Part shown: positions 1,573 through 32,575 of the stretch, in pieces
Numbering within the stretch: position 1 is the stretch's first letter
Layout of the letters: each line of letters begins with the position of its first letter
DNA from: an uncultured Pseudomonadota bacterium
Lineage (GTDB): Bacteria; Vulcanimicrobiota; Vulcanimicrobiia; Eremiobacterales; Eremiobacteraceae
NCBI GenBank assembly: GCA_963736005.1
Contig: CAVTNB010000001.1
Span: forward strand, 1,664,001-1,728,000
Length of the DNA: 64,000 nt
Direction of reading: 5' to 3'
The notes under the pieces: model-generated
What the model was told of the DNA's origin: nothing
Database searches by the model: none
What the model saw: only the letters and a program-made list of their open reading frames with translations
Translations under genes and position numbers: made by a program

Positions 1573-1671
1573 GTCTCTTTGAATTATCGGCAAACAGTGT
1601 GAGCGCGGTAGCCGCTGGATCCTGCGGGACATGGGATTCCCAGGCTTAACCCCGAAGGGCAAAGGCAACCC

Positions 1672-2234: not shown

Positions 2235-2332
2235 CGAGGCGAGCGGATATCGTTTAGCTTCCTCGAACAGTCTCTGTCCCAGGCTTGGCCCTTCTTTGAG
2301 GCCACGTCATTGATCGTTTCTTGATAAGGAAC

Positions 2333-3787
2333 ATGCGAACACTTTTCGGACGACGCGGCGCACAGGAAGCGTCGGACCCGCCGCGACCGACTCCATTGGG
2401 TGGTGCCGCCTTCACAGCGGCGGCCGTCTTGGCCATTGCTCTCTTTGTCTCTGTGTTGGGATCCGCCGTCACCTACGTTCGGGTCGATGCGGCCTACAAA
2501 CAGCAAAATGCGGTCGAAAGCGCTAAAGGGGAACTCGAAGCCCTGTTCCGCAGTCAGCTCGATGAGGAGACAAGTCTGCGCGGCTATCTCGCCTCGGGCC
2601 AGAAGGTGTTCTTAGAGCCATACACCACGGCGCAGCCCCGCTTTCGCCAAGCACTCGACGCATTGCAAAGTGACTTGGAGCAAGCGCAACTAACCGACGG
2701 CTACCCGGTCGTGTTCGATGTGCGCCACAGTCACGATTTGTGGCAGGTACAGGTTGCCAAACCACTCCTCAGCCACCCAACGGCCCCAGGCGAAATGGAG
2801 TTGTTGCAGCGCGGAAAGACCATCGTCGACCGCATTCGTTTGGACTTCACCCAGCTGAGTGATTTGCTGGATAGCCAGTCTCGCCTCGCGCAAGATGCGG
2901 TCCGGTCGCTCCTTTTGCGTGCCGCGCTCTTGACGGCCGCGCTTATTTTGCTCTTCGGAGCGATCGCCATCGTGGCAGACATCGTTCGTTCGCGCACCCA
3001 AGCGTCGTTGGAACGAGAGCGCATTGTTGGCGACACTCTGCAGCGAGCGTTTCTCAGCGGTTGGGATTCGTGTCCATACATCGAGGTTGGCACCGCCTAT
3101 GTTTCGGCGGCACGCCATCTTGCCATTGGCGGCGACCTCTTTGACGTCCACAGCGTTGACGATCATCGCTGCTTGCTGGTCGTTGCAGACGTCAGTGGCA
3201 AGGGTCTTGATGCCGCAGTTGACACAGCTTTTGTCAAGTATTCGCTTCGCTCGCTCGTGGCCGAGCATCAGGATCCATCGGTCATCCTGAAAAAGTTCAA
3301 TGCCGCGTTCCTGCGATCGGTCCGGGATGACACCTCGTTTGTCAGTCTCTTCGCCGGCGTGCTCGATGCCTCGAAGTCAACGCTGCAGTACGCGAGCGCC
3401 GGGCACTCTCCCGTGTATCTCCGACGCGACGACGACGTGCGGCAATTGCCCGTCACCGGCCCGCTCGTTGGCCTGCGCATCGAAGACGATTTCGCCTCGG
3501 CAACAGAGACGCTTGCGCCGCACGATATTATCGTGCTCTCCACCGACGGGTTCACGGAGGCGCGCGACACGGCCGGGATGATGATCGACGACGCGGGCGC
3601 CATGCGCATCATCCGAGAAGCGCCACAGCCACCTCAAGAAATGGCCGACTTCATTGTGGCGGCAGTCACCCGGGCATCCGGCGGCCGAATCGCGGATGAC
3701 CTAGCGCTCCTCGTGGTCGAGCTTACCGGGACCGGAGTTGAGCAAACCCCGGCGCCGCAAGGGTTTGCGACGACGGTTGGGGCGTAG
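2333..3787 (+). CDS. CHASE3 sensor plus PP2C/SpoIIE phosphatase
   Basis: TM-[DEETSLRGYL...FLEPY]-TM, then GGDLFD, VADVSGKG, SAGH, STDGFTE, DDLA; SD AAGGA before ATG 2333. Confidence 0.9.
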   Translation: MRTLFGRRGAQEASDPPRPTPLGGAAFTAAAVLAIALFVSVLGSAVTYVRVDAAYKQQNAVESAKGELEALFRSQLDEETSLRGYLASGQKVFLEPYTTAQPRFRQALDALQSDLEQAQLTDGYPVVFDVRHSHDLWQVQVAKPLLSHPTAPGEMELLQRGKTIVDRIRLDFTQLSDLLDSQSRLAQDAVRSLLLRAALLTAALILLFGAIAIVADIVRSRTQASLERERIVGDTLQRAFLSGWDSCPYIEVGTAYVSAARHLAIGGDLFDVHSVDDHRCLLVVADVSGKGLDAAVDTAFVKYSLRSLVAEHQDPSVILKKFNAAFLRSVRDDTSFVSLFAGVLDASKSTLQYASAGHSPVYLRRDDDVRQLPVTGPLVGLRIEDDFASATETLAPHDIIVLSTDGFTEARDTAGMMIDDAGAMRIIREAPQPPQEMADFIVAAVTRASGGRIADDLALLVVELTGTGVEQTPAPQGFATTVGA

Positions 3788-18283: not shown

Positions 18284-20410
18284 CTAAAGGAACGATAGCT
18301 GGTCGCGGTCTTCGCCCGCCGCTGCCCGCGCTTCAGGCGGCACGAGGTCGTCAAAGCGGGCAACGAAATCGGCAACTCGGCGCACCAAGTACTCGCGATC
18401 TTCATCACCAGCATACTCCTCCAGCAAAGCGAGTTCGCCTCCCACACGCTGATAGACGCGGACCTTGTCCCCCACAGTCAGGCCTCGCTCGGTCAGCGCG
18501 CGGGCGAGCCGGCGATTGCCCGGCGCATTAAAGGTTTTCGACGTGATGGATTCCCGCCGCGAGAAGTCTTCCGGCGCGAGCTTGCGGTCGACGATGGCAT
18601 CAACCGTCTCACGCACGAGCTCGGCTATCTCCTGCGTGCGACCTTCAATGAGCAAGTTGGCGATGGCTGCCACAAGCGCCCTGCCGAATGGTTCGTCTCG
18701 GCCGGAGCGCAGAGCCGAGCCGCGCATGACCAGCTCACCCGAACTGCGTTTGAGCACGTAGTTTTTGGCCTTGATCGAAAGCATCACCGGGTAGCGCTCT
18801 TCCGCGACGAGTCGCAGCTCGTCGCCCAACCCTTGGGCGAGCGACGCGACGACTGCTTCGGAATTGTGAGTCGGCGCAACGAAATACGCGCCGTCGGTGT
18901 CGGCTTCGATGACCGTGCACCCGCGCTCGCGCAATCCGTCGACAATCTTGCCCATCACCTCACGCCCGGCTTCTGTCACCCTTCCGCCAGCAACCGGATC
19001 GTTGAAATGCAAACCGTGCGTGCCTAAAAATCCAAAGAAAGAATTAACGAGAATCTTAAAAGCGTTTTGCAATCCCTCGGCGGAGAGTTTATCCTCGTAT
19101 CGGCCTTGTCGACTCGCCTCTTCTGACTCTCGCTTCGCGGTAAGCCGCATCTCCCGCAGGCCTGCCAGCATGGGCAAGAACACGCCGAGGTCATCATCCC
19201 ATGGTGCGATGCCTCGAGCGAGCATGAGCGACGGATACAGGCTTTCGACGTCGCATTTCATGACGTCGTGAAAGATCCCGGTGAGAAAAGCGGCACTGAA
19301 CGCGCCTTCGATGGGCGCCGTTGGGCGCGGTCGCGGAATCGACCAGCGCTCGCGCAGATACGCGCGCACCATGAGGCGTTCGATACGGCTCCCGATGCCC
19401 ACACTGGCCACACCCTGCAGCGTTTCGGGCACCATCTGCGCCTGATAGAATTCGTTCGGCGTTACGAGGATGGAGAGTCGGTCTGTATCGCGCGCATCGT
19501 CGAGGCAGTATGCTTTCAGCTTGGCTCGCATGTCCGGGTTCGACCACAGCGCGCGCATGTTAGCGGCGTCGACCATCGTCCGCTCCTCATCCCCGATGCC
19601 CAGGTGGCGTACGATGTGTTTGAGTTTGTAGTTGGGCAGCTTTCGCCCGACATCCCAACGCACTGCGCTGATGAACGTGTCGACGACTTGACGACCTTCG
19701 ATGCGGTAGTATTTGACGAGCATGCCGCTTTGCGTCGTGCGGCGAATGCTGTCGTCTAGCCACATCGGCGTGCGCCCATCTCGACCGAGCGTGAGCTCAA
19801 CACCATGCCGCTTCGCGCGACTTGTCAGATACCAAAGATCAAAATTGAAGACGTTGTGGCCTTCCAAAATGTCGGGGTCGCGTTCGCGGACCGAGTGTAC
19901 GAACGCCTCGATGAGAGCTCCTTCTCCAGGAAAATCATCCAACGGGAGCACCTGCTCGAAACCCGTGTTATCGCGCAACGCGATAATAACGATGGCTGCG
20001 TCGTCGCGTTCCGGGTTGACGTCAAGGGTTTCGATGTCGAACTGCAAGCGGCGCAGTTGCGAGAAGCGCAGGCCTTTGAAGAACGTGTCACCCGTGGCCA
20101 CCAAGTGAGAGGTGATGGGGTCGAAGTAGGCGAGCCGCTGATCCGGCGCGAGTATGCGCGCTCGATCGCTGATTGCGCGCGCGTCTGCGCCGAGCATAAA
20201 ATGGCGCAACTCGTGCTGTCCGGCAAGTTCGATGCTGCCCGGTTGCGGTTTGCGGGCCAGCAGCCAGTTTTGCAGCGGCACGATCTCGCGCTCGGTTCGC
20301 GCGCCAACGCGCCGATACAGCGTGGCCGCACCAGCAGAGACATCCGGCTCCACGCTCACGATGCCGGTGCGGAATCCATGACCGAAAATGAGCTCGGAGG
20401 TCTGGGGCAC
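18284..20410 (-). CDS. Family B DNA polymerase with 3'-5' exonuclease
   Basis: DIET, GHNVFNFD, YCLDD; DVESLYPS, KILVNSFFG, ADTDG; C-terminal QLSFL. Confidence 0.92.
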   Translation of the reverse strand: MPQTSELIFGHGFRTGIVSVEPDVSAGAATLYRRVGARTEREIVPLQNWLLARKPQPGSIELAGQHELRHFMLGADARAISDRARILAPDQRLAYFDPITSHLVATGDTFFKGLRFSQLRRLQFDIETLDVNPERDDAAIVIIALRDNTGFEQVLPLDDFPGEGALIEAFVHSVRERDPDILEGHNVFNFDLWYLTSRAKRHGVELTLGRDGRTPMWLDDSIRRTTQSGMLVKYYRIEGRQVVDTFISAVRWDVGRKLPNYKLKHIVRHLGIGDEERTMVDAANMRALWSNPDMRAKLKAYCLDDARDTDRLSILVTPNEFYQAQMVPETLQGVASVGIGSRIERLMVRAYLRERWSIPRPRPTAPIEGAFSAAFLTGIFHDVMKCDVESLYPSLMLARGIAPWDDDLGVFLPMLAGLREMRLTAKRESEEASRQGRYEDKLSAEGLQNAFKILVNSFFGFLGTHGLHFNDPVAGGRVTEAGREVMGKIVDGLRERGCTVIEADTDGAYFVAPTHNSEAVVASLAQGLGDELRLVAEERYPVMLSIKAKNYVLKRSSGELVMRGSALRSGRDEPFGRALVAAIANLLIEGRTQEIAELVRETVDAIVDRKLAPEDFSRRESITSKTFNAPGNRRLARALTERGLTVGDKVRVYQRVGGELALLEEYAGDEDREYLVRRVADFVARFDDLVPPEARAAAGEDRDQLSFL

Positions 20411-20413
20411 GCG

Positions 20414-21568
20414 CTAATAATACCGGGTGGGTGTGGGTGTTGGCGTGGGCGGAGCTGGCGGCGAGGCGACGGGCTGGTCGCTGCTTTGGGGTATTGGAAT
20501 CGGCGGCAGGCTCACTTCGGGCAACGTGCTGGGATAGGGCGTAATGGGCGCCATCGCGGGCGGGATAAACTCAGTATTTGTAGCGACCGGACGGGCAACT
20601 TGATCGGGCACTGCAGTCGAGTACACAGCCGTGTCCGATGGGGCCGTGTTCCCAAGATAAGCTGACGCGGGAAGAAAACCTGGCGAACCCGAGTAGACTG
20701 GGATACCGGGAATATAGCGGACCAGTTTGATTGTTGTGCTCACATTGAGGTTGTAGCTCCCGGTGCGGTCCTTCACTTTCGCGTTGCCGTGGCTAAAGGC
20801 GTTGAGGGTCATGCCGAGCAGCAACTTGTTCGCAGACTCGACAAACGTTTGGCCGGTCGCGCCGCCACCACCGCGCAATGTGGCAAGACCAAACCCCTTA
20901 ACCTTGATTTTTGCGCGCAAATCTGAGCCTCCAGTTGATGAGATTTGCACGACGCTGCCTTGATCGCCCGTTGGCTGGTTCACGATATTTTGCATGTGCA
21001 GGGTGAGGGTTCCATATCGCAGCGAGACCACACCCGTGCTCGTCCACCACTTGCCGATATCCGGCAAATCGGCAGAGAGGCTGGAGAGCAAGAACGACGC
21101 CGACGCCAGATCGGCAAGAGCCCCTGTCGGCGGCCCAGCGCCTTGCGCGTCGAGCATGGGACTCGGCTGCGGAGATGCCGACGCAGAGGGAGTTGGCGAG
21201 GGCGAAACGGTTGCTGCTGGACTCGCCGACGCGGTGGAGACGGGCGCGGCAGTCGCGACGCCAAGAATCGGTCCACCCGCAGAGCCAATGCCTTCAACCG
21301 TCCAAGCCACGCTGCTGCTCGAGTTCTCCCTAAACGTCTGCGAGGTGGGCGCTGCGTTCCCATCGCGATAGCGAACCGTCAGGGTCGAGGTGCGCGTAAT
21401 AACATAGACTTGCTCCTCGCCGATGCCAAAGGCGTGGCCTGCAACGGAATAATATGCCTTCGCGGGAGTGGTTTGGCTGTTTGGATCGGCTATGCTCGCG
21501 GCAACGACGGCAAAAACGGTCGCCACGACCAGCACAGCGGGCAATCTCATTTTGGGGTTTACCATCAC
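20414..21568 (-). CDS. Secreted hypothetical protein, Pro-rich
   Basis: Signal peptide, SPSPTP linkers; tightly coupled to neighbours. Confidence 0.7.
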   Translation of the reverse strand: MMVNPKMRLPAVLVVATVFAVVAASIADPNSQTTPAKAYYSVAGHAFGIGEEQVYVITRTSTLTVRYRDGNAAPTSQTFRENSSSSVAWTVEGIGSAGGPILGVATAAPVSTASASPAATVSPSPTPSASASPQPSPMLDAQGAGPPTGALADLASASFLLSSLSADLPDIGKWWTSTGVVSLRYGTLTLHMQNIVNQPTGDQGSVVQISSTGGSDLRAKIKVKGFGLATLRGGGGATGQTFVESANKLLLGMTLNAFSHGNAKVKDRTGSYNLNVSTTIKLVRYIPGIPVYSGSPGFLPASAYLGNTAPSDTAVYSTAVPDQVARPVATNTEFIPPAMAPITPYPSTLPEVSLPPIPIPQSSDQPVASPPAPPTPTPTPTRYY

Positions 21569-22479
21569 GGGCCAGACCTTGGAGTGACCGTCGGATACGG
21601 CGTTTGCGCGTTCAACAATGGCGTTGGAGTTGGAGCGGCGCTCGTCTCCAAAGGTTGCGGAGAGACCTGCGTACCCTCAAGTTCCTGGTTTTGCGCTGGC
21701 GTAGGTGATGCGTGGGTCCATCCGTTGAGCACGACATTGAATTCGGCCGAATAGTCGTCGTGAGACGACCCGCTGGCCGATTGCTGCACGACGGTCAGCG
21801 TGCGCAACGCTTCGCCGATCAGCAGTCGGTCTTGGCTATCGTAATACGTGGTGCCGCTCACGGTGATTGTGCCGGACGTCGGCTGCCCATCTGCCGTCTT
21901 GAGCAGCGTTCCCGTCCCCGCGGACTGCAGCGCGTATGCGGTGAAACCTTGGTAGTTCGTTCTTCCCACAATTCTGCGCGTCACGGTCAAGACAAGGAAC
22001 GGTGTCTTGGATGCATTGGTCCAGGTCTTGCCAACGGCAAGGAGCCCATTTAGCGCGACCTCCCCGGCTGTGGTGTTTGCGGCTCCGATCGCATCAGAAA
22101 TGCCAAGCCCAACCTGCGCTTTGGTTCTCAGTTGCCCGTCCGGCAAAATTTTGCCCGACGTCACGGATTGGAACTCAACCGGTTGCCCTTGGTTCAGTCC
22201 TTTGAAATCGAAAGCGACGGTTGCGTAGGCTGTTCCATCCGCACCGATCGAGTAGACAGTAAAGGTTGCAGTCCCTTGTGCAGACGATTCGGCCACTTTG
22301 TCCTGGCTCTTTGAACCGCCGCGCACATGGTGCTGCTGCAACTCGGAGGTGATGGCATAGACAAGCTGGTCGCCGGCAACGAATGGAGACGTCGCCGCTC
22401 TGGCACTCGAGTGAGACGCCGCTGCAAACGCAAGCATCACACCCAAGACTATCGTCGTAGTTGCCGCAAGAAGTCGCAC
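21565..22479 (-). CDS. Secreted beta-rich hypothetical protein (possible distant paralog of the downstream gene)
   Basis: GGAGG then GTG at 22479; signal peptide; G-Q-VY-IT motif shared with the neighbour. Confidence 0.7.
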   Translation of the reverse strand: MRLLAATTTIVLGVMLAFAAASHSSARAATSPFVAGDQLVYAITSELQQHHVRGGSKSQDKVAESSAQGTATFTVYSIGADGTAYATVAFDFKGLNQGQPVEFQSVTSGKILPDGQLRTKAQVGLGISDAIGAANTTAGEVALNGLLAVGKTWTNASKTPFLVLTVTRRIVGRTNYQGFTAYALQSAGTGTLLKTADGQPTSGTITVSGTTYYDSQDRLLIGEALRTLTVVQQSASGSSHDDYSAEFNVVLNGWTHASPTPAQNQELEGTQVSPQPLETSAAPTPTPLLNAQTPYPTVTPRSGP

Positions 22480-22563
22480 CTTTGGCCCTCCAGCGCCTGA
22501 CGATATTCGCAGCAGGAACGTGGGCAGGTTTGACGACGAACGCACATAAACCCCTTTGCAACA

Positions 22564-23160
22564 GTGATTAGGCGGTTGGCTCTCTTCATAGTTTTTGTCT
22601 GCTTCTTCACGCGGATGAGCGCGCTCGGCGATGGCTCCGATGGCTACGATTCAAATCTTGCGCGAGCTGTGCGCAGCGCCACAGAGCAGTACCGCCTCGT
22701 CCTTTGGGCGACACACGACGGGTACATTCAGACGACGGAGTACATCCCATCGTTTGGCACGATGTACACGAATCACGATCGGTTCGACCCTGACACGCTG
22801 GCTAATCCAACGGTTTTGATTTACGACATCGCGGGAAGACTCGTGGCGTGTGGCTACCAATTTGTCAACAAGTCCGACATCCCTGACGTCTTGAAAACTC
22901 CAGACGTCACTGGCTGGTACCAGATCCCCAGGCACGTGCACTATAACATTGTCGTTGACGGCGTGACCTACTTCGTGCAGCAACCCTGGGATGGCGACGA
23001 GCAGCCGACTGCCGCGCTCTTGATCCAGCGCAAGCTCATGCCGCCAAACGCAACGTTGAACTTCGCCTTCGTCCACCCGTCCGCGACAGCTATCGTCATC
23101 TGGGCGTGGATGCCCAATCCTTACGGGCTTTTCGATTCAGCCAATCCGTCGCTCCCATGA
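22564..23160 (+). CDS. Secreted hypothetical protein
   Basis: Signal peptide; P-VLIYD--G-LV, RHVH, WAW-PNP-G-F---NP motifs. Confidence 0.7.
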   Translation: MIRRLALFIVFVCFFTRMSALGDGSDGYDSNLARAVRSATEQYRLVLWATHDGYIQTTEYIPSFGTMYTNHDRFDPDTLANPTVLIYDIAGRLVACGYQFVNKSDIPDVLKTPDVTGWYQIPRHVHYNIVVDGVTYFVQQPWDGDEQPTAALLIQRKLMPPNATLNFAFVHPSATAIVIWAWMPNPYGLFDSANPSLP

Positions 23161-23173
23161 TGCGTGTTCCCAC

Positions 23174-24904
23174 GTGACCAGCGCTCAGATAGCCCAACGG
23201 CTCAATGAAATCGCCGCGCTCATGGAGTTTTACGGCGAGCCGTTTTTCAAGATCAAAGCGTACGAGCGGGCGGCGCGAAGCCTTGAAGACAGTCAGACGC
23301 CAGTTGAAGTGCTGCTCGAGAGCGGCGAGCTCGAAGGCCTGCCCGGCATCGGCAAAGCCATTTCGCAAAAAATCGCAGACATTAATCGTACCGGCACGTG
23401 CAAATATCTCGAGGAACTGCGCGCGAAATTTCCGCCCACGATCTTGGAGCTCTTAAGCGTCCCCGGCATCGGCGCGAAAACTGCAGTCTCGCTCTACCGG
23501 GAGCTTTCGGTGGGCGGTCTTTTGGATTTGCGTCGAGTCATCGACGATGGCAGCATCGCACGAGTGCCGCGCCTAGGTCCAAAAACAATTGAGAACATTA
23601 AGAGTCAACTGGCGCGCGTGGGGACCCAGACGAGACGTTTGCGCCTGGGCGATGCCTGGCCGCTGGCCCGCGAGATTGTGGATGCTCTCGCTGCGCTGCC
23701 CTTTGCTCGCAACGTGGTGGCTGCGGGCAGTCTGCGGCGCATGGAGCGCAGCGTTTCGGACTTAGATATCATCTGCACGAGCGCCCAGCCTGAATCGGTG
23801 ATCGAGGCGTTCGTGGCGCTGCCCATCGTCGAACGAGTGAGCTCACAAGGCACGACCAAGGCGACGATTTGGGCCGAACCCGGGATCTCTGTCGACCTCC
23901 GAGTGGTCGCTCACGAATGTTTCGGCAACCTCCTGCAGCACTTTACTGGAAATAAAGAACACAATGTCCGGCTGCGGGAGCACGCTCTCCGCAAAGGTTT
24001 GAAAGTCAACGAGTATGGCATCGAAGACAAGGCGGGGAAGGTCGCCACGTTCGTCGACGAGGCGGACGTCTACACGATGCTTGGTTTGCAATTCATTCCG
24101 CCCGAGTTGCGATTAGGTCTGGACGAAATCGAACTTGCCAAACGCAACGCCCTCCCGGTGATTGTTGAACTTGGTGACATCCGTGGAGACCTTCACGATC
24201 ACACCAACTGGAGCGATGGTGTGTGCACGATCGAACAGATGGCCAGAGCGGCAGCGCAGCGCAAACGGGAATACCTCTCGATTTCCGATCATTCACCGGG
24301 GCGAGCGGTCGCGAATGGTCTTTCGGTCGAGCGCTTGCAGGAACAAATCGGGCAGGTCAAATCAGTCGCCGACAGATTTGGGGTCCATTTGTTCTCAAGT
24401 TCGGAAGTGGACATTCGGGCCGATGGCTCATTAGACTTGGCCGATGACGTGCTCGCTCAACTTGACATTGTGGTCGCTTCGATCCACTCCTCGTTTCGCG
24501 CTCCGAAAGAGCAGCAAACCAAACGACTCCTGGGCGCCATTGAAAACCCTCACGTGAATATCATCGGTCACCCAACTGGCACGCTGATCGAGGAGCGAGC
24601 GGGATACGAATTTGACGTGGATGCCGTGTTTCGCGCGGCTGCACGTACGGGCACCGCGCTTGAAATCAATTCGAACCCAGCGCGGCTGGATCTGAACGCA
24701 GATCTGGCGCGCAAGGCAAAGGAGATGGGCTGCATCTTCTCGGTCGACACTGACGCGCACTACGTCGAAGATATGGATAATATGCTCTTCGGAGTTGCAA
24801 CCGCGCGTAAGGCCGGCATTACCAAGGAACGAGTGCTCAATGCGCAACCACTTCAGGACGTCTTAGCGTTCGTTCGAAAGAAGCGTTCCGCAACGCGCGA
24901 ATAA
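23174..24904 (+). CDS. polX: DNA polymerase X/PHP exonuclease
   Basis: HhH GIG motifs, GSLRR, DLD, HFTG, PPELR, DLHDHT--SDG, HPTG, DTDAH. Confidence 0.95.
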   Translation: MTSAQIAQRLNEIAALMEFYGEPFFKIKAYERAARSLEDSQTPVEVLLESGELEGLPGIGKAISQKIADINRTGTCKYLEELRAKFPPTILELLSVPGIGAKTAVSLYRELSVGGLLDLRRVIDDGSIARVPRLGPKTIENIKSQLARVGTQTRRLRLGDAWPLAREIVDALAALPFARNVVAAGSLRRMERSVSDLDIICTSAQPESVIEAFVALPIVERVSSQGTTKATIWAEPGISVDLRVVAHECFGNLLQHFTGNKEHNVRLREHALRKGLKVNEYGIEDKAGKVATFVDEADVYTMLGLQFIPPELRLGLDEIELAKRNALPVIVELGDIRGDLHDHTNWSDGVCTIEQMARAAAQRKREYLSISDHSPGRAVANGLSVERLQEQIGQVKSVADRFGVHLFSSSEVDIRADGSLDLADDVLAQLDIVVASIHSSFRAPKEQQTKRLLGAIENPHVNIIGHPTGTLIEERAGYEFDVDAVFRAAARTGTALEINSNPARLDLNADLARKAKEMGCIFSVDTDAHYVEDMDNMLFGVATARKAGITKERVLNAQPLQDVLAFVRKKRSATRE

Positions 24905-24918
24905 ATTCGCGCGACTAC
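24894..24918 (-). repeat. REP class A overlapping the polX stop
   Basis: cgcgcgaataaattcgcgcgactac. Confidence 0.85.
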
Positions 24919-24924
24919 ATCAAC

Positions 24925-25725
24925 CTACAAGCCCAAGCGCTCGAGCAGCTGTGCCGGGGCGGCAAAGCCTGGTGGGCGATACGCGGCTTCAAGATAGCCG
25001 TGATAATCGCTGCCCCCACAATAGAACTTGCCATGTTTCATGGCCAAGGCACGCAGCGATGCTTGCTCCGCCTCGCCATACGCCAAATAGATTGCTTCAA
25101 GACCATCGCAATCGGCCAGAAGGGTTTCGGCAAGCCCAGCCTCATGTAGGGCCATCGGATGGGCAAGCAGCGCCAGCCCCCCACAGTTGCGGATCATCGA
25201 CGCCGCCTTTTCTGGCGTTGGCAGTTGAGTGTATGCCTGCTGCGGCAGCTCAGAAAAGAACGCGCGAAAGCGCGCATGAACTCGAAGTGGATCGCCGCCA
25301 TCAACACCCCGTCGAACCAATCGTTCGATCAGGACCGGCAAACGCACCGGGTGGTGCGGGAAATCGCGCGCAAGGTCTATGTCGACGCCGTCACGAGCCA
25401 GCGCCGCGATCCAGCGGCATTGATTGGCGTCCCAAACGTTGTGTGCAATTTCGTTTGCCGCTTGCAGTTCGTCATTGCTGCCATCGCATCCGAGGCCAAG
25501 AACGTGGATAACTCGCCCATGAGCATACGTCGTCATTTCGATGCCTGGCACAAATTTCAGCGCACGTTCCATTGCGCGCTGCCGTGCAGCGCCATGGCCT
25601 GCCGTCGTGTCGTGGTCCGTCAGCGCGAACACTTCCACGCCCGCATCCGCGACGCAGTCCACAAGCAATGCCGGATCGAGACGGCCATCGCTGCAGTGGC
25701 TGTGAAGGTGGAAGTCAGCGAACAA
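24925..25725 (-). CDS. PHP-domain phosphoesterase (TrpH/YciV-like)
   Basis: DFHLHSHCSDG, LTDHD, GIE, LAHP, GSDYHG. Confidence 0.9.
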   Translation of the reverse strand: MFADFHLHSHCSDGRLDPALLVDCVADAGVEVFALTDHDTTAGHGAARQRAMERALKFVPGIEMTTYAHGRVIHVLGLGCDGSNDELQAANEIAHNVWDANQCRWIAALARDGVDIDLARDFPHHPVRLPVLIERLVRRGVDGGDPLRVHARFRAFFSELPQQAYTQLPTPEKAASMIRNCGGLALLAHPMALHEAGLAETLLADCDGLEAIYLAYGEAEQASLRALAMKHGKFYCGGSDYHGYLEAAYRPPGFAAPAQLLERLGL

Positions 25726-26500: not shown

Positions 26501-26917
26501 CTACTCGCGGACCAACGCTAACCTGGGCACCGAGCGGCCGGCTTGACGCGCCAAGCTATCGGCGCGTTCGTGAACGTCTCTGACCACCGACTCCAACTCA
26601 TCGATATAGGCAAGGAAACGCGTTCGCCCACTCTTCGTAATCCGGCAAATCGTGGTCGGGCGACCGGGCCCGCTCTCCTTGTTGATCGAGACGATGTCCA
26701 TTTCTGCCAACGCGGTCAGATGGCGGCTAAGATTGCCATCGGTTAAACCGCAAGCTTCCTGAAGCTCGGTAAAGCTCATGCCTTCGGGATGGGTCACGAG
26801 GCACGTGCACACGGCGAGCCGTCCGCGTTCGTGAAAGATACGCTCTAAACCAGAATAAGCGAACGGTGCATCCGTGCGGGTCCGCTGCGGTTTCCGTCCA
26901 TTTTTCTTCATCGTCAT
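26501..26917 (-). CDS. Winged-helix transcriptional regulator
   Basis: FHERGRL...F-EL---CGLTDGNLSRHL...T--GR--F--Y. Confidence 0.88.
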   Translation of the reverse strand: MTMKKNGRKPQRTRTDAPFAYSGLERIFHERGRLAVCTCLVTHPEGMSFTELQEACGLTDGNLSRHLTALAEMDIVSINKESGPGRPTTICRITKSGRTRFLAYIDELESVVRDVHERADSLARQAGRSVPRLALVRE

Positions 26918-27525
26918 GGCGATGACTGCGCTTTCCTATCCAATGATAACAAGTAGCCAATGATGGTCTGGCCAAGACCAAATCCGGCCGGCATCACCCA
27001 AAATGAAAGCGACCACGAGGGATCCGGGATCAAGATGAGCGCCGCGCCGGCGAGGCCGAATGCGCTCGCCACGTACGTGACGCCTCGCGGCAACATGGCG
27101 CGCGACGAAAACAGCCCGATGCCGTACGAAGCATACCAGACGCCTGGCAACAGCGAGACTATCCCGTGAGCGATCATTGCTAAACTCAGCACAGCGCCCA
27201 GCCCAACGGCTGGAAGGATCGCTATGCCGACGCTGCGGGTCTGTCGCCGTTCGTGTAACCCGGCATTGCGAACGTACCAAACGAGCAATGCGCCGTAGTT
27301 GATGGCTAGCGCTGCGGCGAGGCAGGCGAACCATATGACGAGATATCGCTGGGTGTCCGCCGGAGTTTGAGGAAACGGCGCAACCACCCATTGGACGATT
27401 CCCGCGACGATTGCCACCACGCCGCTGAGTGCCGCAGCCGAACCCGAATAGCCCCGAAATTCCTGGACGCTTGCCAGGCGGTCTCGCACTTCGGCGAGAT
27501 CCGCGAGCGCCCGCTCAACTTCCAT
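26914..27525 (-). CDS. Multi-pass membrane protein coupled to the wHTH regulator
   Basis: About 6 hydrophobic segments; 4-nt overlap with the regulator. Confidence 0.8.
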   Translation of the reverse strand: MEVERALADLAEVRDRLASVQEFRGYSGSAAALSGVVAIVAGIVQWVVAPFPQTPADTQRYLVIWFACLAAALAINYGALLVWYVRNAGLHERRQTRSVGIAILPAVGLGAVLSLAMIAHGIVSLLPGVWYASYGIGLFSSRAMLPRGVTYVASAFGLAGAALILIPDPSWSLSFWVMPAGFGLGQTIIGYLLSLDRKAQSSP

Positions 27526-27578
27526 CGGTTACTTTGTACCACAAAGTCAGGCAAATTGCAACGCACATCATTTTCTCT

Positions 27579-27602
27579 GTCGCAGCGGACCTCTAGGTCC
27601 GC
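27579..27602 (+). repeat. REP class C
   Basis: gtcgcagcggacctctaggtccgc. Confidence 0.7.
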
Positions 27603-27725
27603 GTGCCCGAACTGAGGACCAAAGGGAAGCGCCTTTCCTTGGCCTTGTGGCAGATTCTAAGGCTTGCCGAACGATGGTATAGTAACGAAGGCGCGGAACT
27701 GTCCTACCTGAAAGCGAGAGAGACG

Positions 27726-28697
27726 ATGGAATTATCCGACCTGCAAGTCTACCACAACGGAAAGTTCGTGCGGTATGGAGACGCCAAGGTCGGGCTCCTC
27801 ACGCACGGCCTCAACTACGGTACCGGGTGCTTTGAAGGCATACGTGGTTACTGGAGTCCGTCGCTCGAGCAGCTCTATATCTTTCGGCTGCAAGATCACT
27901 TCGAACGCCTGCGTCGATCGTCAAACCTCTTGCTGGTCTCCTTGGAAGAAACCGTCGCACAGCTCAGCGCCCATACCGTCGAATTGGTCCGCCGCAACAA
28001 ATTGCGCCAAGACGTCTATATCCGACCCATCGTGTTCAAGTCCGCTGAGGAAATCGGCGTACGCTTGCACGGCGTCGAGCACGACATCAGCATCGTCGTA
28101 CTGCCGCACAAACCATATCTTGATGCATCAAAGGGTCTACGTGCCTGCGTTTCATCGTGGCACCGGATCGATGACAACACCGCTCCTGCGCGGGCAAAAT
28201 TGACGGGCATCTATGTAGGCTCGGCGCTTGCAAAGACCGATGCGGTCAAGAGCGGATTCGATGAAGCGATCGTCATGACGGCCGAGGGGCACGTTGCCGA
28301 AGGCAGTGCGGAGAACATTTTTATCGTCCGCGATAACCTCGTGATCACACCGCCAGTCACGGATAACATCTTGGAAGGCATCACGCGGCTCACGATTATG
28401 GAGCTCGCTGCGACCGAACTCGGTCTGCGAGTTGTCGAGCGAAGCATTGATCGCACCGAATTATATCAGGCGGATGAAGTATTCTTCACTGGCACGGCCG
28501 TTGGGGTGTCCCCCGTTATTGAGATAGACCACCGGAAGATCGGCGAGGGCGGTATTGGGAAAGTGAGCGCCGCGCTCGTCCAGCTCTACGAGGATATCGT
28601 GGTGGGGCGCCTCAGTCAGTATCAGCGCTGGCTGACGTCTTGCTTTCCCGTAGCGGGCGGCTCCAGCGTGAAGAGCTCGAAAGCGGCGGCTTCTTAG
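27726..28697 (+). CDS. ilvE: Branched-chain amino acid aminotransferase
   Basis: HGLNYGTGCFEG, YIRP, AK--G-Y, EGSAEN, LEGITR, DEVFFTGT. Confidence 0.95.
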   Translation: MELSDLQVYHNGKFVRYGDAKVGLLTHGLNYGTGCFEGIRGYWSPSLEQLYIFRLQDHFERLRRSSNLLLVSLEETVAQLSAHTVELVRRNKLRQDVYIRPIVFKSAEEIGVRLHGVEHDISIVVLPHKPYLDASKGLRACVSSWHRIDDNTAPARAKLTGIYVGSALAKTDAVKSGFDEAIVMTAEGHVAEGSAENIFIVRDNLVITPPVTDNILEGITRLTIMELAATELGLRVVERSIDRTELYQADEVFFTGTAVGVSPVIEIDHRKIGEGGIGKVSAALVQLYEDIVVGRLSQYQRWLTSCFPVAGGSSVKSSKAAAS

Positions 28698-28745
28698 CCA
28701 CCGGACGTCCTAGCTAAGGGGACGCGCACATTAGGTCTTTCTGCC

Positions 28746-28774
28746 TTGCATTGTCGTATGGTCTCATCTATAAT
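28746..28774 (+). promoter_or_regulatory. Sigma70-type promoter
   Basis: TTGCAT-N17-TATAAT in an intergenic region of a GC-rich genome. Confidence 0.75.
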
Positions 28775-28780
28775 TGGTGT

Positions 28781-29015
28781 GACGGGGGTCACATATCCAC
28801 CCGTCGGTATTGTTATATAAGGCTCGGGGAGCGACTCGGTTCATTCACGTGAGATGGATCGAGAATGTTTTTCGAGCAGGCGCTTCAGGACCGATGTCTT
28901 GTCGTGGTGGCAGCCACTTTTGACATGACCGTACGCGACGGTTGAATCCTAAAACGCCTGCCCGTGTGGACGGAACGCTGCTCGAGACTTCAGCACTTGA
29001 AGAAGGAGCCTTCTC
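28781..29015 (+). ncRNA. Candidate structured leader RNA (~235 nt)
   Basis: Stems 28781-28805, 28835-28863 and 28928-28942; alternative pairings 28876-82/28955-61 versus 28872-79/28978-85; SD inside hairpin 29001-29014. Confidence 0.45.
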
Positions 29016-29126
29016 ATGCTAGTTCTACTCGGTGGCGTTCTCGCTGTGTTCCACAGCCTTGGTGGTGTGTTGTCCTCGGCTTCCCACTTCTTCCATATTT
29101 TTGGAGACACAGTCGGCTGGTTCTAG
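29016..29126 (+). CDS. 36-aa hydrophobic peptide MLVLLGGVLAVFHSLGGVLSSASHFFHIFGDTVGWF
   Basis: AAGGAG (29003-29008) 7 nt before ATG; TAG overlaps the HD-GYP stop (CTAG); downstream of a strong promoter. Confidence 0.68.
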   Translation: MLVLLGGVLAVFHSLGGVLSSASHFFHIFGDTVGWF

Positions 29127-30421
29127 ACGACAACATCACTCAATAAACTAACCAGTCTCGGATCATAAAGCGTTCCGCTACCTTCGCGAAGTAGCGCGAG
29201 CGCTTTTTCTTTTTCCATTGCTTCTGCCCCATCGTACCCCGTCAGGAACCTAACATAGTCTCTTGCAACAGTTATGATGCGAGAAGCGAGGGGGATGTCT
29301 TCTCCTTTCAAGCCACGCGGATATCCAGCGCCATCGAAGCGCTCGCCGTGAAACTCGATCCAATCCGCGATCTGATTTGGCAGCAATGCGTCTGCCGCAC
29401 GAACCATGAGGCCACCCCAGCGCGCGTAGGCGCGTTTTTGGCTTGCCTCTTTGGGATTCGACGGAGCGCGATTTCGGATTCTGGCGGGGATATGTGATTT
29501 GCCTATTTCGTGGAGCTCCGCAGCCAAACCGAGCAGATCAATATCGCGCTTCGACATGCCGAGACGGCGACCCAACATTTGGGAGATATTCTGGACCTCG
29601 CTCGCAAACTCGAGGTTTTCGGTATCGGTAAAATGCGTGAGGTCGCGAACAAGCCCCTGAGCTTGCGCTTGCGCCCTCTCCAGCTTATGAAGCTGAGTTG
29701 TAATCCCTAGGACGTCCTGAACAACTCTAATTTGTGCAACGACGATGTAAAAAATCGATGTGGTGAGCAGGCCGCCGAACCGATATGTTGCGACCAGCAA
29801 ATAGGCGTAGACAGACGCAATGACTCCAGTTCTGAGCAGTTGCGTCAGAGCAAAAGGTCGACCATTGATCAGGTAGTAGACGTATGCGGTGACATTGCTT
29901 GCTGTTTGCCAGGCCAAACCAACGGCAACAATGCCTAGCAGATCAACAACACTCGTGAGATACTTCGGGGTTATGATCAGAACCTGACCAACGAGATGCC
30001 ATACCCCGAGTAATGCATACGATCCAATAATGGCGCTCGCTGTTTGGCCAAAGGTCGCCGGCGCGAGCATCGACCTCCAGCCACCGCCTTCGTGCAGCAT
30101 CATCCGCAGTCGGACAACTGCCCAAGTGATCACCGCCAAGACGATTGTCCATGACCCGAAGACTACGCCTGAGGCCGAGATGACGGCCGTCATTGGCGCT
30201 ACCATTGAGACTGCAGGGGTCTTGACGGGACGCTCCATCAAGATCAGAAACACCGCGACGATTGCGACCTGAACGATGGTGGTTATTCGGAGATCGAAGT
30301 GTGGCGGGAAGAGATACAAAAGGAGAAGTGAGATTCCAGTAAGACCGTAAGCGTAAAGCTGGGTCGCGATCTCGCGCCAGCTCTCCCGCTGTGACTGTGC
30401 GTGGTCCCCTGCCAAAGCCAC
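29123..30421 (-). CDS. Membrane sensor with a degenerate HD-GYP domain
   Basis: About 7 TM segments, then LHEIGK, FHGERFDGAGYPRGLKGEDIPLASRIITVARDY, GTLYDP. Confidence 0.88.
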   Translation of the reverse strand: MALAGDHAQSQRESWREIATQLYAYGLTGISLLLLYLFPPHFDLRITTIVQVAIVAVFLILMERPVKTPAVSMVAPMTAVISASGVVFGSWTIVLAVITWAVVRLRMMLHEGGGWRSMLAPATFGQTASAIIGSYALLGVWHLVGQVLIITPKYLTSVVDLLGIVAVGLAWQTASNVTAYVYYLINGRPFALTQLLRTGVIASVYAYLLVATYRFGGLLTTSIFYIVVAQIRVVQDVLGITTQLHKLERAQAQAQGLVRDLTHFTDTENLEFASEVQNISQMLGRRLGMSKRDIDLLGLAAELHEIGKSHIPARIRNRAPSNPKEASQKRAYARWGGLMVRAADALLPNQIADWIEFHGERFDGAGYPRGLKGEDIPLASRIITVARDYVRFLTGYDGAEAMEKEKALALLREGSGTLYDPRLVSLLSDVVV

Positions 30422-30606
30422 GAGTTGTTTTACGCCTTTCCCTTGCGGGCGTTGTGTCCCCCAGCACTTCCGGCCAGTACAACGCTTCGCGCTACCGTTC
30501 TCAATGTATCGTCTATGCGACGTTTGTGAGGAAGCGCATATTACGTCACACTATAGGGTCGTGCGCAGCGTCACGCACAGCTGTTCGAAGAGAATGGGCG
30601 CAAGCC

Positions 30607-31512
30607 CTAGTTTATGGGCGCGGCGCGTCGTTGGGAGAACGCGCGAAACGTGAGGAGCGAAACTTGGCGGATGAAGCGCTCGCCCAAGTCGAGATCGGAC
30701 AGATGCGTTGTGAAAACGCATATGACATAGGGCGAGCCGTTGAGCTCGACGATGCCGATGTCGTTGAGGGTATCGTGAAGCGTTCCAGTCTTGTGAGCGA
30801 TCACCAATGACTTTGGAAGCCACGCAGGGATCATCGTATTGTGTCGCTGGCCGGCAAGTATCTCAAGCATCGCATCGCAGGCCTTGGCGTTCACTAGTCG
30901 ATGTTCGGCGATCATGCCCATAAGTCGCATCATGTCATTGGCGCTCGTGCGCAGCGTGCGAACGTCCCCATCGCTATGGATGCTATCCCCGAGCCAGGTC
31001 TGCGTGAGCCCCAGGCCCTGCATGGTCTGGTTCACATGCTGACGGCCTACCAAACGGATCAGCATGTTGGCCGCGGTGTTATCGCTGACGGTGATCATGC
31101 GCCACAAGAGCTCCCAGACCGTATACTTCGAACCCCATGGTGCATCGCATAAAGAGCCATAACCGCAATCGCGATCGCCCTCGCGCAGCGATACCGTGCG
31201 GTAAAAGCCAAACTTGCCCAGTGAAATCTGCCGCATCACCTCAACCATGACCGGCACTTTGATCGTACTGGCGGCCGGTAGATTGACGTTGCCATTGATG
31301 GACATCGTGTAGCCATTGTGGAGGTCGACAACGGAAATCGCAACCTCACCCGGAGCATTGTCGACCAACCGCTCGAGCTTTGGAGCAAGGTCGCCATACG
31401 TATCGACGTCGGCAGAGGCAATCAGGGCTGGTTTCGGAGACGCTGGAGCGATCGATGCGCTTCCAGCGATGACAAGTGCCACGATGACGATGAGAAAGGC
31501 AAAATGACGCAT
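30607..31512 (-). CDS. Class A beta-lactamase-like serine hydrolase
   Basis: Signal peptide, ASTIK (SxxK), SDN, HKTG. Confidence 0.88.
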   Translation of the reverse strand: MRHFAFLIVIVALVIAGSASIAPASPKPALIASADVDTYGDLAPKLERLVDNAPGEVAISVVDLHNGYTMSINGNVNLPAASTIKVPVMVEVMRQISLGKFGFYRTVSLREGDRDCGYGSLCDAPWGSKYTVWELLWRMITVSDNTAANMLIRLVGRQHVNQTMQGLGLTQTWLGDSIHSDGDVRTLRTSANDMMRLMGMIAEHRLVNAKACDAMLEILAGQRHNTMIPAWLPKSLVIAHKTGTLHDTLNDIGIVELNGSPYVICVFTTHLSDLDLGERFIRQVSLLTFRAFSQRRAAPIN

Positions 31513-31569
31513 TTTATAGAGAGCTCTTGCGCTAGTGTATCGGCGACGATAACGAGGGAATTTAGTCCA

Positions 31570-31593
31570 AGCGAACCTAAAGTCCGCTGCTAT
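31570..31593 (-). repeat. REP class C, degenerate
   Basis: agcgaacctaaagtccgctgctat. Confidence 0.6.
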
Positions 31594-31600
31594 ATCGATT

Positions 31601-32518
31601 ATGCAAGTGGTAGAACGCGCACACACTGTGACGATCATCGGTGTGCCACTGGAGTTGGGCGCCAGTCGTCGGGGCGCGCGTCTGGGCCCGCAGGCACTGA
31701 GAACTGCGGGGCTGGCACAGCAGCTGGAATCCCTTGGCTATGCGGTGACGGACTTCGGAGACGTCGCCGTGATAGGCAAGTCCGGCGATGCTTTAGGTGG
31801 GCCAGGTCACCCAAGAAACGTGCGGTCAGTGCATGACGCCAATCGCGAAATCGCTCATGCCGTGGAAACCGCGATACGCGAGCAGTCCTATCCAGCTGTG
31901 ATCGGCGGGGACCACTCGATGGCCGTCGGCGTGATCGCCGGGATCGCGCGGGTCAACGGACCACAAGGCGTCATTTGGGTGGACGCGCACGCTGACCTGA
32001 ACACCACGGAAAGCAGCCCAACCGGTAACATTCACGGGATGTCTATGGCCGCTGCGTTTGGACAGGTGACCGATATTTTTCCGGCGCCCGAGTTTCCGAC
32101 GCCCGCTGCCGATCGACGGCGCACCGTGTTCATCGGCTTGCGCGAACTCGATCCGCAAGAAAAGCGGACCATCATCGAGCACGATATTCTGTGCTTCACG
32201 ATGAGCGACATCGACCGCCTCGGTATGGCAAAGGTGATGGAGCGGGCGATCGAAAGGGCCAGTCAAGGACCGCGCAGCGTGCATATCAGCTTCGACATCG
32301 ATTGCCTTGACCCAACCCTCGCGCCGGGAACTGGTACGCCCGTGCGCGGGGGCATCACCTATCGAGAGGCTCACTTCATCATGGAAGCGCTTTGGCAGAG
32401 TGGCGTGGCTCATTCGCTCGAGCTTTCTGAAGTTAATCCCTTGCTCGACGAACACAACATGACGGCAAAGCTCGCCAACGAACTCATCTGTTCGGCGCTA
32501 GGCAAGAGCATTTTGTAA
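31601..32518 (+). CDS. rocF: Arginase
   Basis: GGDHS, DAHADLN, GNIHGM, SFDIDCLDP, EVNP. Confidence 0.93.
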   Translation: MQVVERAHTVTIIGVPLELGASRRGARLGPQALRTAGLAQQLESLGYAVTDFGDVAVIGKSGDALGGPGHPRNVRSVHDANREIAHAVETAIREQSYPAVIGGDHSMAVGVIAGIARVNGPQGVIWVDAHADLNTTESSPTGNIHGMSMAAAFGQVTDIFPAPEFPTPAADRRRTVFIGLRELDPQEKRTIIEHDILCFTMSDIDRLGMAKVMERAIERASQGPRSVHISFDIDCLDPTLAPGTGTPVRGGITYREAHFIMEALWQSGVAHSLELSEVNPLLDEHNMTAKLANELICSALGKSIL

Positions 32519-32575
32519 AGGCTAAAGGAGCACGAAGACAGCACGCACGCATCGATTGTCTTCATCGCTATCGGA

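Follow-up and report, generated by a model that had tools for sequence, protein, structure and literature searches.

The subject of this study is a 64,000-nt stretch of genome from an uncultured bacterium of the Eremiobacteraceae (NCBI GenBank assembly GCA_963736005.1, contig CAVTNB010000001.1, positions 1,664,001 to 1,728,000 of the forward strand; hereafter, the window), and within it a gene for a 36-residue micro-protein that converges on the gene for a membrane sensor with a non-canonical HD-GYP domain. The small open reading frame (ORF) is a real, strongly transcribed gene, and comparison with related genomes gives good evidence that peptide and sensor form a matched, co-evolving pair; we lean, with modest confidence, toward the view that the micro-protein is the cognate partner of the sensor. 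A sequence-only reading of this locus had described a promoter, a long leader, an AAGGAG site, the ORF, and a 4-nt overlap between the stop codons of the two genes, and the letters of the window bear out each of these, including the length of the leader (∼235 nt) and of the peptide (36 aa). The same reading had proposed that the peptide, or its C-terminal fragment, is a ligand or modulator of the sensor, with a type I toxin as the alternative. The reality of the gene and its tie to the sensor stand, while the D-x-x-G-W motif that was read in the peptide tail does not, and the toxin alternative fits less well. Three features lie beyond that reading: a perfect palindrome at the likely start site, a terminator-like hairpin inside the HD-GYP gene, and the allelic hypervariability of the pair.

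The genome that holds the window is 2.84 Mb in size, 84% complete, and 58.6% G+C. Orthologues were compared across 24 distinct loci from Candidatus Eremiobacterota genomes, which fall into clades A to E. Two of the 24 (L002 and L009) derive from the unpublished genomes G013 and G011, which also contribute rows to alignments A1, A3, A4, and A5; the unpublished genome G008 is counted in tallies only. The cassette comparisons below are independent of G011 and G008, and L002 is identical to locus L022. The elements of the pair are as follows.

29016–29126, plus strand: small ORF of 36 aa, MLVLLGGVLAVFHSLGGVLSSASHFFHIFGDTVGWF, predicted to form a single long helix, with two GGVL units, conserved His residues, and a C-terminal H-x-x-D-T
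29123–30421, minus strand: membrane sensor of 432 aa, with a seven-helix N-terminal domain, a long linker helix, and a non-canonical HD-GYP domain
29717–30421, minus strand: seven-helix domain of the sensor (about residues 1–235), from the AlphaFold model
29153–29611, minus strand: HD-GYP domain of the sensor (residues 271–423), Pfam HD_5
29042–30371, both genes: allelic cassette, comprising the peptide codons from about the tenth to the end and the HD-GYP gene minus its first ∼16 codons

Co-variation of the micro-protein and its convergent sensor

The cassette is delineated by comparison of the window with locus L049, from a metagenome contig. The two are 95–100% identical over positions 26700–28950 and 30450–32550, and 58–76% identical over 29100–30300. 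At a resolution of 40 nt, identity is 100% as far as ∼29041 (the ninth codon of the ORF), drops to 38–78% until ∼30371, and then returns to 92–100%; similarly, a DNA contig from run X2 matches the window to 29055 and resumes at 30366. At the amino acid level, the flanks of window and L049 are 99% identical, as against 59% for the transmembrane (TM) domain, 78% for the HD-GYP domain, and 72% for the peptide. Two further, independent pairs of loci have cassette edges at the same places relative to both genes:

L062/L064: flanks 99% identical (amino acids), membrane domain 67%, peptide 75%
L081/L034: flanks 95% identical (amino acids), membrane domain 54%, peptide 40%

The leader, which adjoins the left edge, is 95–100% identical in the two closest pairs. 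Across the 112 locus pairs (mutually non-independent) whose flanks are at least 85% identical, TM-domain identity lies anywhere between 49 and 100%, and that of the peptide tracks it.

Between window and L049, synonymous divergence (dS) amounts to 0.06–0.09 in the flanks and has reached saturation in each of the two sensor domains; the corresponding comparison for L062 and L064 is 0.15 vs. saturation. Because flank dS is low where that of the cassette is saturated, the alleles are ancient rather than the product of recent, fast change. The phylogenies of cassette and flanks also disagree. The flank tree groups the window with L049 (support 100), and the sensor tree instead groups the window with L022 (support 98), whose flanks are only 80% identical to those of the window, and L049 with L052 (support 95). 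In approximately unbiased (AU) tests, the sensor data reject the groupings of the window with L049 (p = 0.021) and of L062 with L064 (p = 0.0003) and marginally that of L033 with L081 (p = 0.045), and the flank data reject the window with L022 (p = 5e-16).

A positional explanation for these patterns is that selection, whether by phage, an environmental ligand, or another agent, acts on the sensor alone, and that the 3′ part of the peptide gene diverges merely through its place in the same non-recombining tract, the micro-protein having an unrelated job. The two genes touch, such that a tract covering the 3′ end of the sensor gene reaches the peptide, and the synteny of the region is frozen across the family. 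Additionally, the TM domain outpaces the flanks within a single allele class (omega, the ratio of non-synonymous to synonymous substitution rates, is 0.08–0.24 vs. 0.02–0.11, and indicates purifying selection). What speaks against hitch-hiking of this kind is the position of the left edge: three independent pairs, and the X2 contig as well, have it at the same place, within the first ∼10 codons of the small ORF. Since this edge always lies inside the small ORF, and the neighboring leader is far more conserved, the variable part of the peptide would itself be under selection; had selection acted on the distal TM domain alone, recombination should have homogenized the sequence in between, namely the HD-GYP domain and the peptide. 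The peptide is moreover under purifying selection in every clade, and both genes have been lost together in one genome (G009, below). Hitch-hiking is, in our estimation, unlikely.

Separately, the contigs of six metagenome-assembled genomes end in or beside the locus (G008:C14, G017:C248, G019:C193, G021:C15, G023:C125, and G045:C18), breaks that may be attributed to strain-level allelic heterogeneity.

The small ORF is itself conserved as a protein-coding gene. An ATG-initiated ORF of 35–58 aa, convergent to the sensor stop codon, is intact at all 24 orthologous loci, mostly with a GGAG-type ribosome-binding site. It is likewise present at 35 of 35 evaluable loci from metagenomes (among 38 in total; two of the others end too early to be judged, and in the third the match stops at residue 218). 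The ratio of non-synonymous to synonymous polymorphism (pN/pS) is lowest in the frame of the ORF in all five clades, at 0.22–0.55 compared with 0.81–8.6 in the shifted frames (values not corrected for saturation). The earlier claim of a genuine gene is thereby upheld. A profile of the 24 peptides, searched against 1.84 billion representative proteins, yielded 27 matches at E ≤ 0.001; the 24 that were inspected are 35–73 residues long and clearly belong to the same family, and the three uninspected ones span 265–1411 residues. The peptide has no match among Pfam, NCBIfam, or PADLOC models, and a search of the ESM Atlas returned no usable match.

The structural model of the peptide is one helix over residues 2–35 (predicted local distance difference test, pLDDT, 82.6). 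The signature of the family consists of two GGVL units, a His cluster (H-F-x-H), and a C-terminal H-x-x-(D/E)-(T/S)-hydrophobic-hydrophobic, and it is in this last form, and not as D-x-x-G-W, that the tail is conserved. The C-terminal unit occurs once in most members, two to three times in some members of clade C (L013, L075), and three to four times in clade E and in the family member P0018. The repeated sequences differ among these lineages, in which the unit has expanded independently: DTGVFG in one, two, or three copies in clade C; ETLIT, DQMINSG, and ESLVNP as three copies in clade E; and DSLIAGG in four copies in P0018. A motif that is repeated in this manner is as would be expected of a binding or active unit. 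The variable and sometimes tandem motif fits the earlier idea of a C-terminal active part, while the hydrophobic precursor that formed the other half of that idea is not general across clades: the maximum Kyte-Doolittle mean over 19 residues is ∼2.0–2.2 in most of clades A and B (1.6–1.8 in L006 and L007), 1.3–1.5 in clades C and D, and 0.6–1.2 in clade E. The peptides are net acidic, with two to six His, and carry zero to one Lys or Arg in 22 of 24 cases and three in the two others, both from clade D; no signal-peptide features were recognized in them.

Two other roles for the small ORF were considered and rejected. An attenuator peptide for branched-chain amino acids, serving the adjacent ilvE-like gene, would be expected upstream of ilvE, and the ORF lies downstream of it and is conserved in its protein sequence. 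For a double-glycine leader peptide, cut after G16-G17, the hydrophobic pattern is a poor fit to the consensus, and a search of six genomes found no C39 peptidase.

Peptide and sensor are also coupled in their occurrence across the family. There are 26 peptide matches in 25 of 32 family genomes, and all 26 adjoin a sensor gene; at the 19 loci where it was measured, the stop-to-stop spacing is −8 to +19 nt. Of the other genomes, two retain no more than a fragment of the sensor where a contig breaks off; in G019, G023, and G045, contig ends interrupt the locus; and G042 (72% complete) has neither of the two genes nor a flank, such that these last four are uninformative. In G009 (97% complete), the flanking ilvE and hydrolase genes are ∼2 kb apart with other genes between them, and peptide and sensor are both missing from the syntenic site. 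The replacement (L046, G009:C3:24800-29200, at ∼1200–3100) consists of two similar tandem segments and an ORF of 316 aa that, by eye, appears glutathione-transferase-like. Genome G041 has two peptide-sensor pairs of different clades, on contigs C32 and C20 (L037 and L038), next to the same ilvE or hydrolase flanks. These are probably not paralogs, given that both carry the same flanks; a bin that mixes two related organisms is likelier, and they were excluded from the evidence.

The membrane sensor and its HD-GYP domain

The cytoplasmic half of the sensor is recognizable by several measures. Pfam PF13487 (HD_5) matches at E = 2.2e-25 (a score of 89.8 bits, the cut-off being 27.2), phmmer matches include 5z7c, 4mcw, and 4r8z, and residues 238–432 align to solved HD-GYP structures with VIA-align Z scores of 18–22. 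The AlphaFold model of the full protein (pLDDT 77) has approximately seven membrane helices, the long linker helix, and the HD-GYP domain. HisKA and HATPase domains were not found in the sensor by Pfam.

The metal-ligand motifs of the window's protein are LHEIGK and EFHGERFDGAGYP, and DGAGYP is retained. Relative to HD-GYP phosphodiesterases (PmGH, 4mcw; PA4781, 4r8z; Bd1817, 3tm8; V-cGAP3, 5z7c; DvhD, 9rbz), the domain shares the HD_5 match, the fold, and the GYP motif, but differs in its HE for HD, its altered HHE, and its family-specific N-terminal sensor domain. HD is changed to HE (HQ in L006) in every correctly extracted orthologue (17 of the 20 rows of the motif table; the other three are in the wrong frame or partial), and HHE is replaced by (F/Y/H)(H/Q)(G/S/C/R)E, which in the window is H-G-E. 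At two additional sites where PmGH has His, the aligned residues are Phe/Ala and Ala, and GYP is kept in all orthologues but one (GQP in L011). The motif changes remarked on earlier are real and conserved among orthologues. These departures suggest a loss of hydrolytic activity, and the domain may bind rather than hydrolyze a cyclic dinucleotide; the link of the peptide system to cyclic di-GMP (c-di-GMP) is one that we infer from the domain family only.

The TM domain is apparently particular to this family. An hmmscan of 17 TM domains against Pfam at E ≤ 1 gave no family match, including none to CbiM or MASE9 (PF20972), and there was no match in NCBIfam or PADLOC. A language-model search led to clusters in which 10–16% of members carry MASE9 (score 0.91–0.92), which is to be taken as a lead only. 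In a sample of the phylum, sequences of the TM domain (alignment A1) occur in 17 of the 18 genomes from the window's own family and in none of 232 genomes from 20 other families. In structural comparison with the full-length model, the best match of the TM domain is NikM2 (4m5c_A; Z 13.2, root-mean-square deviation 3.5, 181 of 214 residues), a Z of ∼13 being borderline for helical bundles according to the note that accompanies the tool; CbiM (5x3x_M) follows with Z 11.6. The 14 TM-domain rows among the best 50 structural matches are all S components of energy-coupling factor (ECF) transporters, with Z of 9–13. The predicted fold of the TM domain may thus resemble that of ECF S components.

In two genomes the sensor gene is apparently interrupted, by an in-frame stop or frameshift with a split match, and the small ORF is intact (L008, which is G002:C5:892887-894183, and G007:C2:644829-646066). 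Either a true pseudogene or an indel introduced in assembly would account for the interruption in these two assemblies, which have only five to six contigs.

Promoter, structured leader, and putative transcript ends

The regulatory features of the small gene, and a hairpin beyond it, are as follows.

28746–28774, plus strand: sigma-70-type promoter, with −35 TTGCAT (28746–28751), a 17-nt spacer, and −10 TATAAT (28769–28774)
28778–28793, symmetrical: perfect palindrome TGTGACGGGGGTCACA of CRP/FNR type, TGTGA-N6-TCACA, operator-like, overlying the predicted start site
28781–29015, plus strand: structured 5′ leader of ∼235 nt, from fold z-scores and conserved blocks in the alignment
28894–28926, plus strand: hairpin with the conserved hexaloop UGGCAG (loop 28908–28913; inner stem 28904–28907 with 28914–28917)
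29003–29008, plus strand: Shine-Dalgarno site AAGGAG, 7 nt upstream of the ATG at 29016 and within a small local hairpin
29170–29214, plus strand: terminator-like hairpin (29170–29203) and U-tract (29204–29214) that would end the small transcript, located within the HD-GYP gene near the 3′ end of its coding sequence

The −35 element agrees with TTGACA at only three of six positions, which explains why a consensus scan does not list this promoter. It is taken as real because the −10 element is conserved across orthologous loci, as TATAAT, TATACT, or TATAAC in 22 of 24 and TATCAA in two; the −35 is mostly of TTG type. A [GA]T[GA]A-N6-TCAC site lies 4–8 nt past the −10 at all 24 loci, and its core, GTGA-N6-TCAC, is kept at 23 of them (GTAA in L007). 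This position suggests a candidate repressor site. Four HTH_Crp_2 proteins of the CRP/FNR type score above the cut-off in the genome, and Rex is rejected as the binding protein, there being no Put_DNA-bind_N domain in this genome (84% complete). Perfect TGTGA-N6-TCACA occurs three times in the 2.84-Mb genome, the other two copies being at G000:C1:2009258 and G000:C3:259004, and relaxed GTGA-N6-TCAC sites number 49 against ∼38 expected by our own estimate; with three perfect sites and no excess, a regulon of the palindrome was rejected. In predicted RNA folds, the N6 segment of the palindrome pairs with a downstream segment. A second promoter activated by CRP in the class II manner (TATATA, 28814–28819) is unlikely, because RNA contigs begin upstream of it, at 28788–28790.

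The distance from palindrome to ATG is 204–305 nt across loci, and in comparisons of alleles the leader is part of the conserved flank. The fold of the window's transcript is better than that of its shuffles, with z of −2.5 to the stop codon and −4.6 when the terminator region is included. Rfam gives no gathering-score match in the whole window, and at E ≤ 10 within 28600–29300 the sole match is one of 16 bits between ctRNA and the terminator hairpin, such that the leader matches no family. The UGGCAG hairpin is represented 24 times, with at least one copy in 20 of 24 leaders, and has 16 distinct stem sequences, among which compensatory pairs are seen; stems of at least 4 bp are formed in 21 of the 24 instances, compared with 4.7% for hexamers at random positions in these leaders. 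A genome-wide regulon of such hairpins was rejected (a stem of at least 5 bp at 33 of 1754 occurrences, 1.9%, vs. 1.4–2.4% for nine control hexamers). Within the leader, an 11-bp terminator-like hairpin followed by AATGTTTTTC (28835–28872, plus strand) may be an attenuator.

Transcription of the locus is evident in two soil metatranscriptomes from separate studies (runs X12 and X13), each of which has a single contig on the 2.9 kb around it, 28790–29155 (366 nt) and 28788–29161 (374 nt), respectively. Each differs from the window at eight positions (∼98% identity). The contigs span leader and ORF, and neither run has a contig on the ilvE flank or the remainder of the HD-GYP gene. The three differences listed inside the ORF comprise two synonymous changes and the substitution L15F, to a residue that relatives have as well. 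The 5′ ends lie 7–9 nt beyond the start predicted from the −10 element, which fits the promoter and the start near 28781 that had been read from the sequence, with the caveat that such contigs carry no strand and no true ends.

The plus-strand terminator-like hairpin lies 40–90 nt beyond the ORF and satisfies strict criteria at 14 of 24 loci. Within the otherwise divergent cassette, it and its U-tract coincide with an island (29160–29215) that is 95% identical between the window and L049, and the only two differences in the stem amount to one compensatory change from A-U to G-C. Covariation of the stem across 19 loci is not beyond chance, with 117 of 500 shuffles reaching the observed score, and the stem lies in coding sequence. 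Given a terminator-like hairpin inside the sensor gene, the mRNAs of the small ORF and the sensor probably overlap at their 3′ ends. On the minus strand of clades B and E, the UGGCAG hairpin has a U-run after it, and a terminator-like site is recognized at six of eight loci; the sensor mRNA would there end 210–265 nt past its stop codon and run antisense to the entire small ORF. The clade of the window itself has only weak minus-strand sites of this kind, at three of ten loci.

These RNA features bear on two further explanations. The abundant transcript could act mainly as RNA, in a cis-antisense or dual-function role in which the 3′ overlap reduces expression of the sensor, with the peptide secondary. 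The near-invariance of the terminator-like hairpin between saturated alleles, with its two compensatory stem differences, and the UGGCAG loop in 20 of 24 leaders are both in keeping with this idea, and a precedent exists in SR7 of Bacillus subtilis (PMC7834092), which acts as an antisense RNA and in addition codes for a protein of 39 aa (SR7P). Purifying selection in all clades and the repetition of the C-terminal motif show, however, that the protein itself matters, and an RNA-level role is compatible with a peptide-sensor pair rather than exclusive of it. As the primary function of the locus, RNA regulation seems very improbable.

The other explanation is a toxin- or bacteriocin-like membrane peptide, analogous to a type I toxin, that is silenced by its leader and by antisense pairing with the sensor mRNA, and whose alleles diversify by strain antagonism. 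As in type I toxin-antitoxin loci and in SR7/SR7P, a small ORF on a separate, structured RNA overlaps the 3′ end of a convergent gene, and the long leader, the ribosome site within a local hairpin, the operator at the start site, and the convergent partner are all reminiscent of such systems. In clades A and B the peptides have the hydrophobicity that a membrane helix requires, those of clade D have an Asp/Lys stripe on one helix face, and the minus-strand terminator of clades B and E would put the whole small ORF in antisense. A helix stripe of this sort is TisB-like. However, the peptides are poor in the basic residues that type I toxins usually have, net acidic, and His-rich; clade E is not hydrophobic; in the window's clade, the search for a minus-strand terminator gave no more than the weak sites; and PADLOC has no match. 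The partner, moreover, is a 432-aa sensor gene and not a small antitoxin RNA, and the locus is allelic, vertically kept, and single-copy at a fixed chromosomal site throughout the family. For these reasons, we consider a toxin quite improbable.

The genes on either side of the pair complete the description of the locus.

27603–28697, plus strand: class IV aminotransferase (IlvE-like), the conserved left flank (Pfam Aminotran_4, E = 3.1e-50), syntenic wherever the locus extends far enough
30607–31638, minus strand: serine hydrolase of the Beta-lactamase2 family with an N-terminal hydrophobic segment, the conserved right flank (Pfam E = 4.9e-60), syntenic

Further neighbors by Pfam are an arginase, a helix-turn-helix protein, and a membrane protein, and synteny across the family extends to the whole neighborhood (membrane protein, ilvE, peptide, sensor, hydrolase, arginase). 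Directly after the ilvE stop codon, a hairpin at 28706–28727 (GUCC ... GGGAC), conserved within the window's clade in the alignment, is probably the ilvE terminator. Elsewhere in the window, positions 18284–25725 hold a cluster of DNA-repair-like genes, comprising an ORF of 708 aa that resembles family B DNA polymerases (exonuclease domain, E = 1e-12), a pair of ORFs with no Pfam match, a PolX-type polymerase with a polymerase and histidinol phosphatase (PHP) domain (576 aa), and another PHP-domain ORF.

Comparison with peptide-receptor systems

In agr, the variable region consists of the 3′ part of agrB, agrD, and the 5′ half of agrC. The cassette described here resembles this polymorphism and that of comQXP in that the gene of a small precursor adjoins that of a membrane sensor with several helices, the precursor combines a constant N-terminal part with a variable, putatively active one that co-varies with the sensor, and ancient alleles have sharp edges in conserved flanks, with a cassette phylogeny in conflict with that of the flanks. 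Precursor and sensor thus co-vary within conserved flanks, as do the allelic specificity groups of agr and com. Several differences are also apparent: the output is a non-canonical HD-GYP domain instead of a histidine kinase, the neighboring genes include no processing enzyme (AgrB or ComQ), the genes are convergent with overlapping stop codons and not an operon, and the whole sensor varies, including its cytoplasmic domain. Furthermore, the host belongs to an uncultured phylum that probably has an outer membrane.

As a special case of the pair, the peptide could be the precursor of a secreted pherotype pheromone that is cut after its constant N-terminus, with the variable C-terminal piece sensed from outside by the matching allele, which would amount to strain-specific quorum sensing wired to a cyclic-dinucleotide domain. 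Such a scheme accommodates the constant N-terminus and the variable C-terminus that co-varies with the sensor, the tandem repetition of the C-terminal unit in some lineages, the very abundant precursor RNA, and the persistence of ancient alleles in near-identical backgrounds, as under frequency-dependent selection on a social trait; ComQXPA pherotype diversity, described in PMC4408185, is a precedent. The peptide has no signal peptide, however, and the export and processing genes that a pheromone would call for (AgrB, ComQ, radical SAM, C39 peptidase) were not found in the neighborhood or, for the last, in the six genomes searched. A TonB-domain gene in the window suggests that there is an outer membrane for a peptide of 20–40 residues to cross. 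If the topology is NikM-like, the most variable stretch of the sensor (∼residues 140–170) would perhaps lie at the cytoplasmic ends of helices 5 and 6, although this placement is uncertain. Secretion as a pheromone is therefore doubtful in our view. The full agr-like scheme for this soil phylum, in which a leader-controlled micro-peptide would bear the strain-specific signal in its C-terminal unit (at times in two to four tandem copies), with an S-component-like receptor joined to a degenerate HD-GYP domain in place of a kinase, and cross-regulation at the 3′ ends, we hold to be similarly speculative; if true, kin-specific peptide recognition would feed directly into cyclic-dinucleotide signaling.

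The pair could operate in either of two ways, with the peptide acting from outside as a pheromone or as an accessory subunit in the membrane or cytoplasm. The latter would be favored by analogy, given the S-component-like TM fold and the requirement of CbiM for the small protein CbiN (described in passages of PMC7689651). In CbiN/CbiM and in MgrB/PhoQ, as here, a short helical protein is encoded beside a multi-helix membrane protein; CbiN completes an S unit, and MgrB modulates the sensor PhoQ. These proteins share no sequence similarity with those of the locus, and CbiN has two membrane helices, compared with one helix of 35–68 residues in the present family; we know of no allelic co-diversification for either pair. 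In the open-access literature, no paper was found that links HD-GYP proteins to small membrane proteins or ECF-type domains.

A number of observations weigh against a cognate pair. With the neighborhood syntenic across the family, the adjacency of peptide and sensor is by itself weak evidence, and adjacent genes are co-transferred by any recombination tract, with which the variable part of the peptide could travel. The groups put to the AU tests were named after the trees had been seen, and two of the p values are only 0.02–0.045. The cytoplasmic HD-GYP domain also diverges (65–84% amino acid identity in the closest cross-allele pairs), while the kinase domain in agr stays conserved. Hydrophobicity is not conserved between peptide clades. 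By Pfam, none of the neighboring genes encodes AgrB, ComQ, or a radical SAM protein (AgrB and ComQ were not searched genome-wide), and a Peptidase_C39 exporter was found in none of six genomes searched, five of which are at least 95% complete. The RNA contigs establish neither strand nor true ends; their right-hand limit at 29155–29161 was rejected as a true 3′ end, since it coincides with the start of the stretch conserved between alleles and branching of the assembly graph is likelier. Physical binding of peptide and sensor remains a prediction from co-diversification, and co-folding of the peptide (A3) and TM-domain (A1) alignments, with an ipSAE of 0.00 in two runs without controls, is evidence neither for nor against it.

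With these points taken into account, the locus may be pictured as follows. The micro-protein gene has its own promoter, an operator-like palindrome at the likely start site, and a structured leader with the UGGCAG hairpin. The leader and the constant ∼9 N-terminal residues are part of the conserved flank, and the remainder of the peptide and nearly all of the sensor are inherited and exchanged jointly, as ancient alleles. The variable part of the peptide would contact the variable sensor and thereby set the output of the HD-GYP domain, be it binding or turnover of a cyclic dinucleotide, and selection would favor matched pairs and rare types.

Cassettes in which peptide and receptor co-diversify are a genomic signature of strain-specific communication or recognition, and to our knowledge they are known mainly from Firmicutes with kinase receptors. 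Here, the same signature occurs in Candidatus Eremiobacterota, a phylum without cultured model organisms. The peptide family, the sensor domain, the stop-to-stop layout, the HD-GYP output, and the host phylum all set it apart from known pherotype systems. The pattern also lends itself to searches of metagenomes, in which one would look for the 3′ part of a small ORF that is hypervariable, together with a neighboring sensor, among near-identical strains. For the Eremiobacteraceae, the locus joins an undescribed micro-protein family and an undescribed membrane sensor domain to an output of the cyclic-dinucleotide type.

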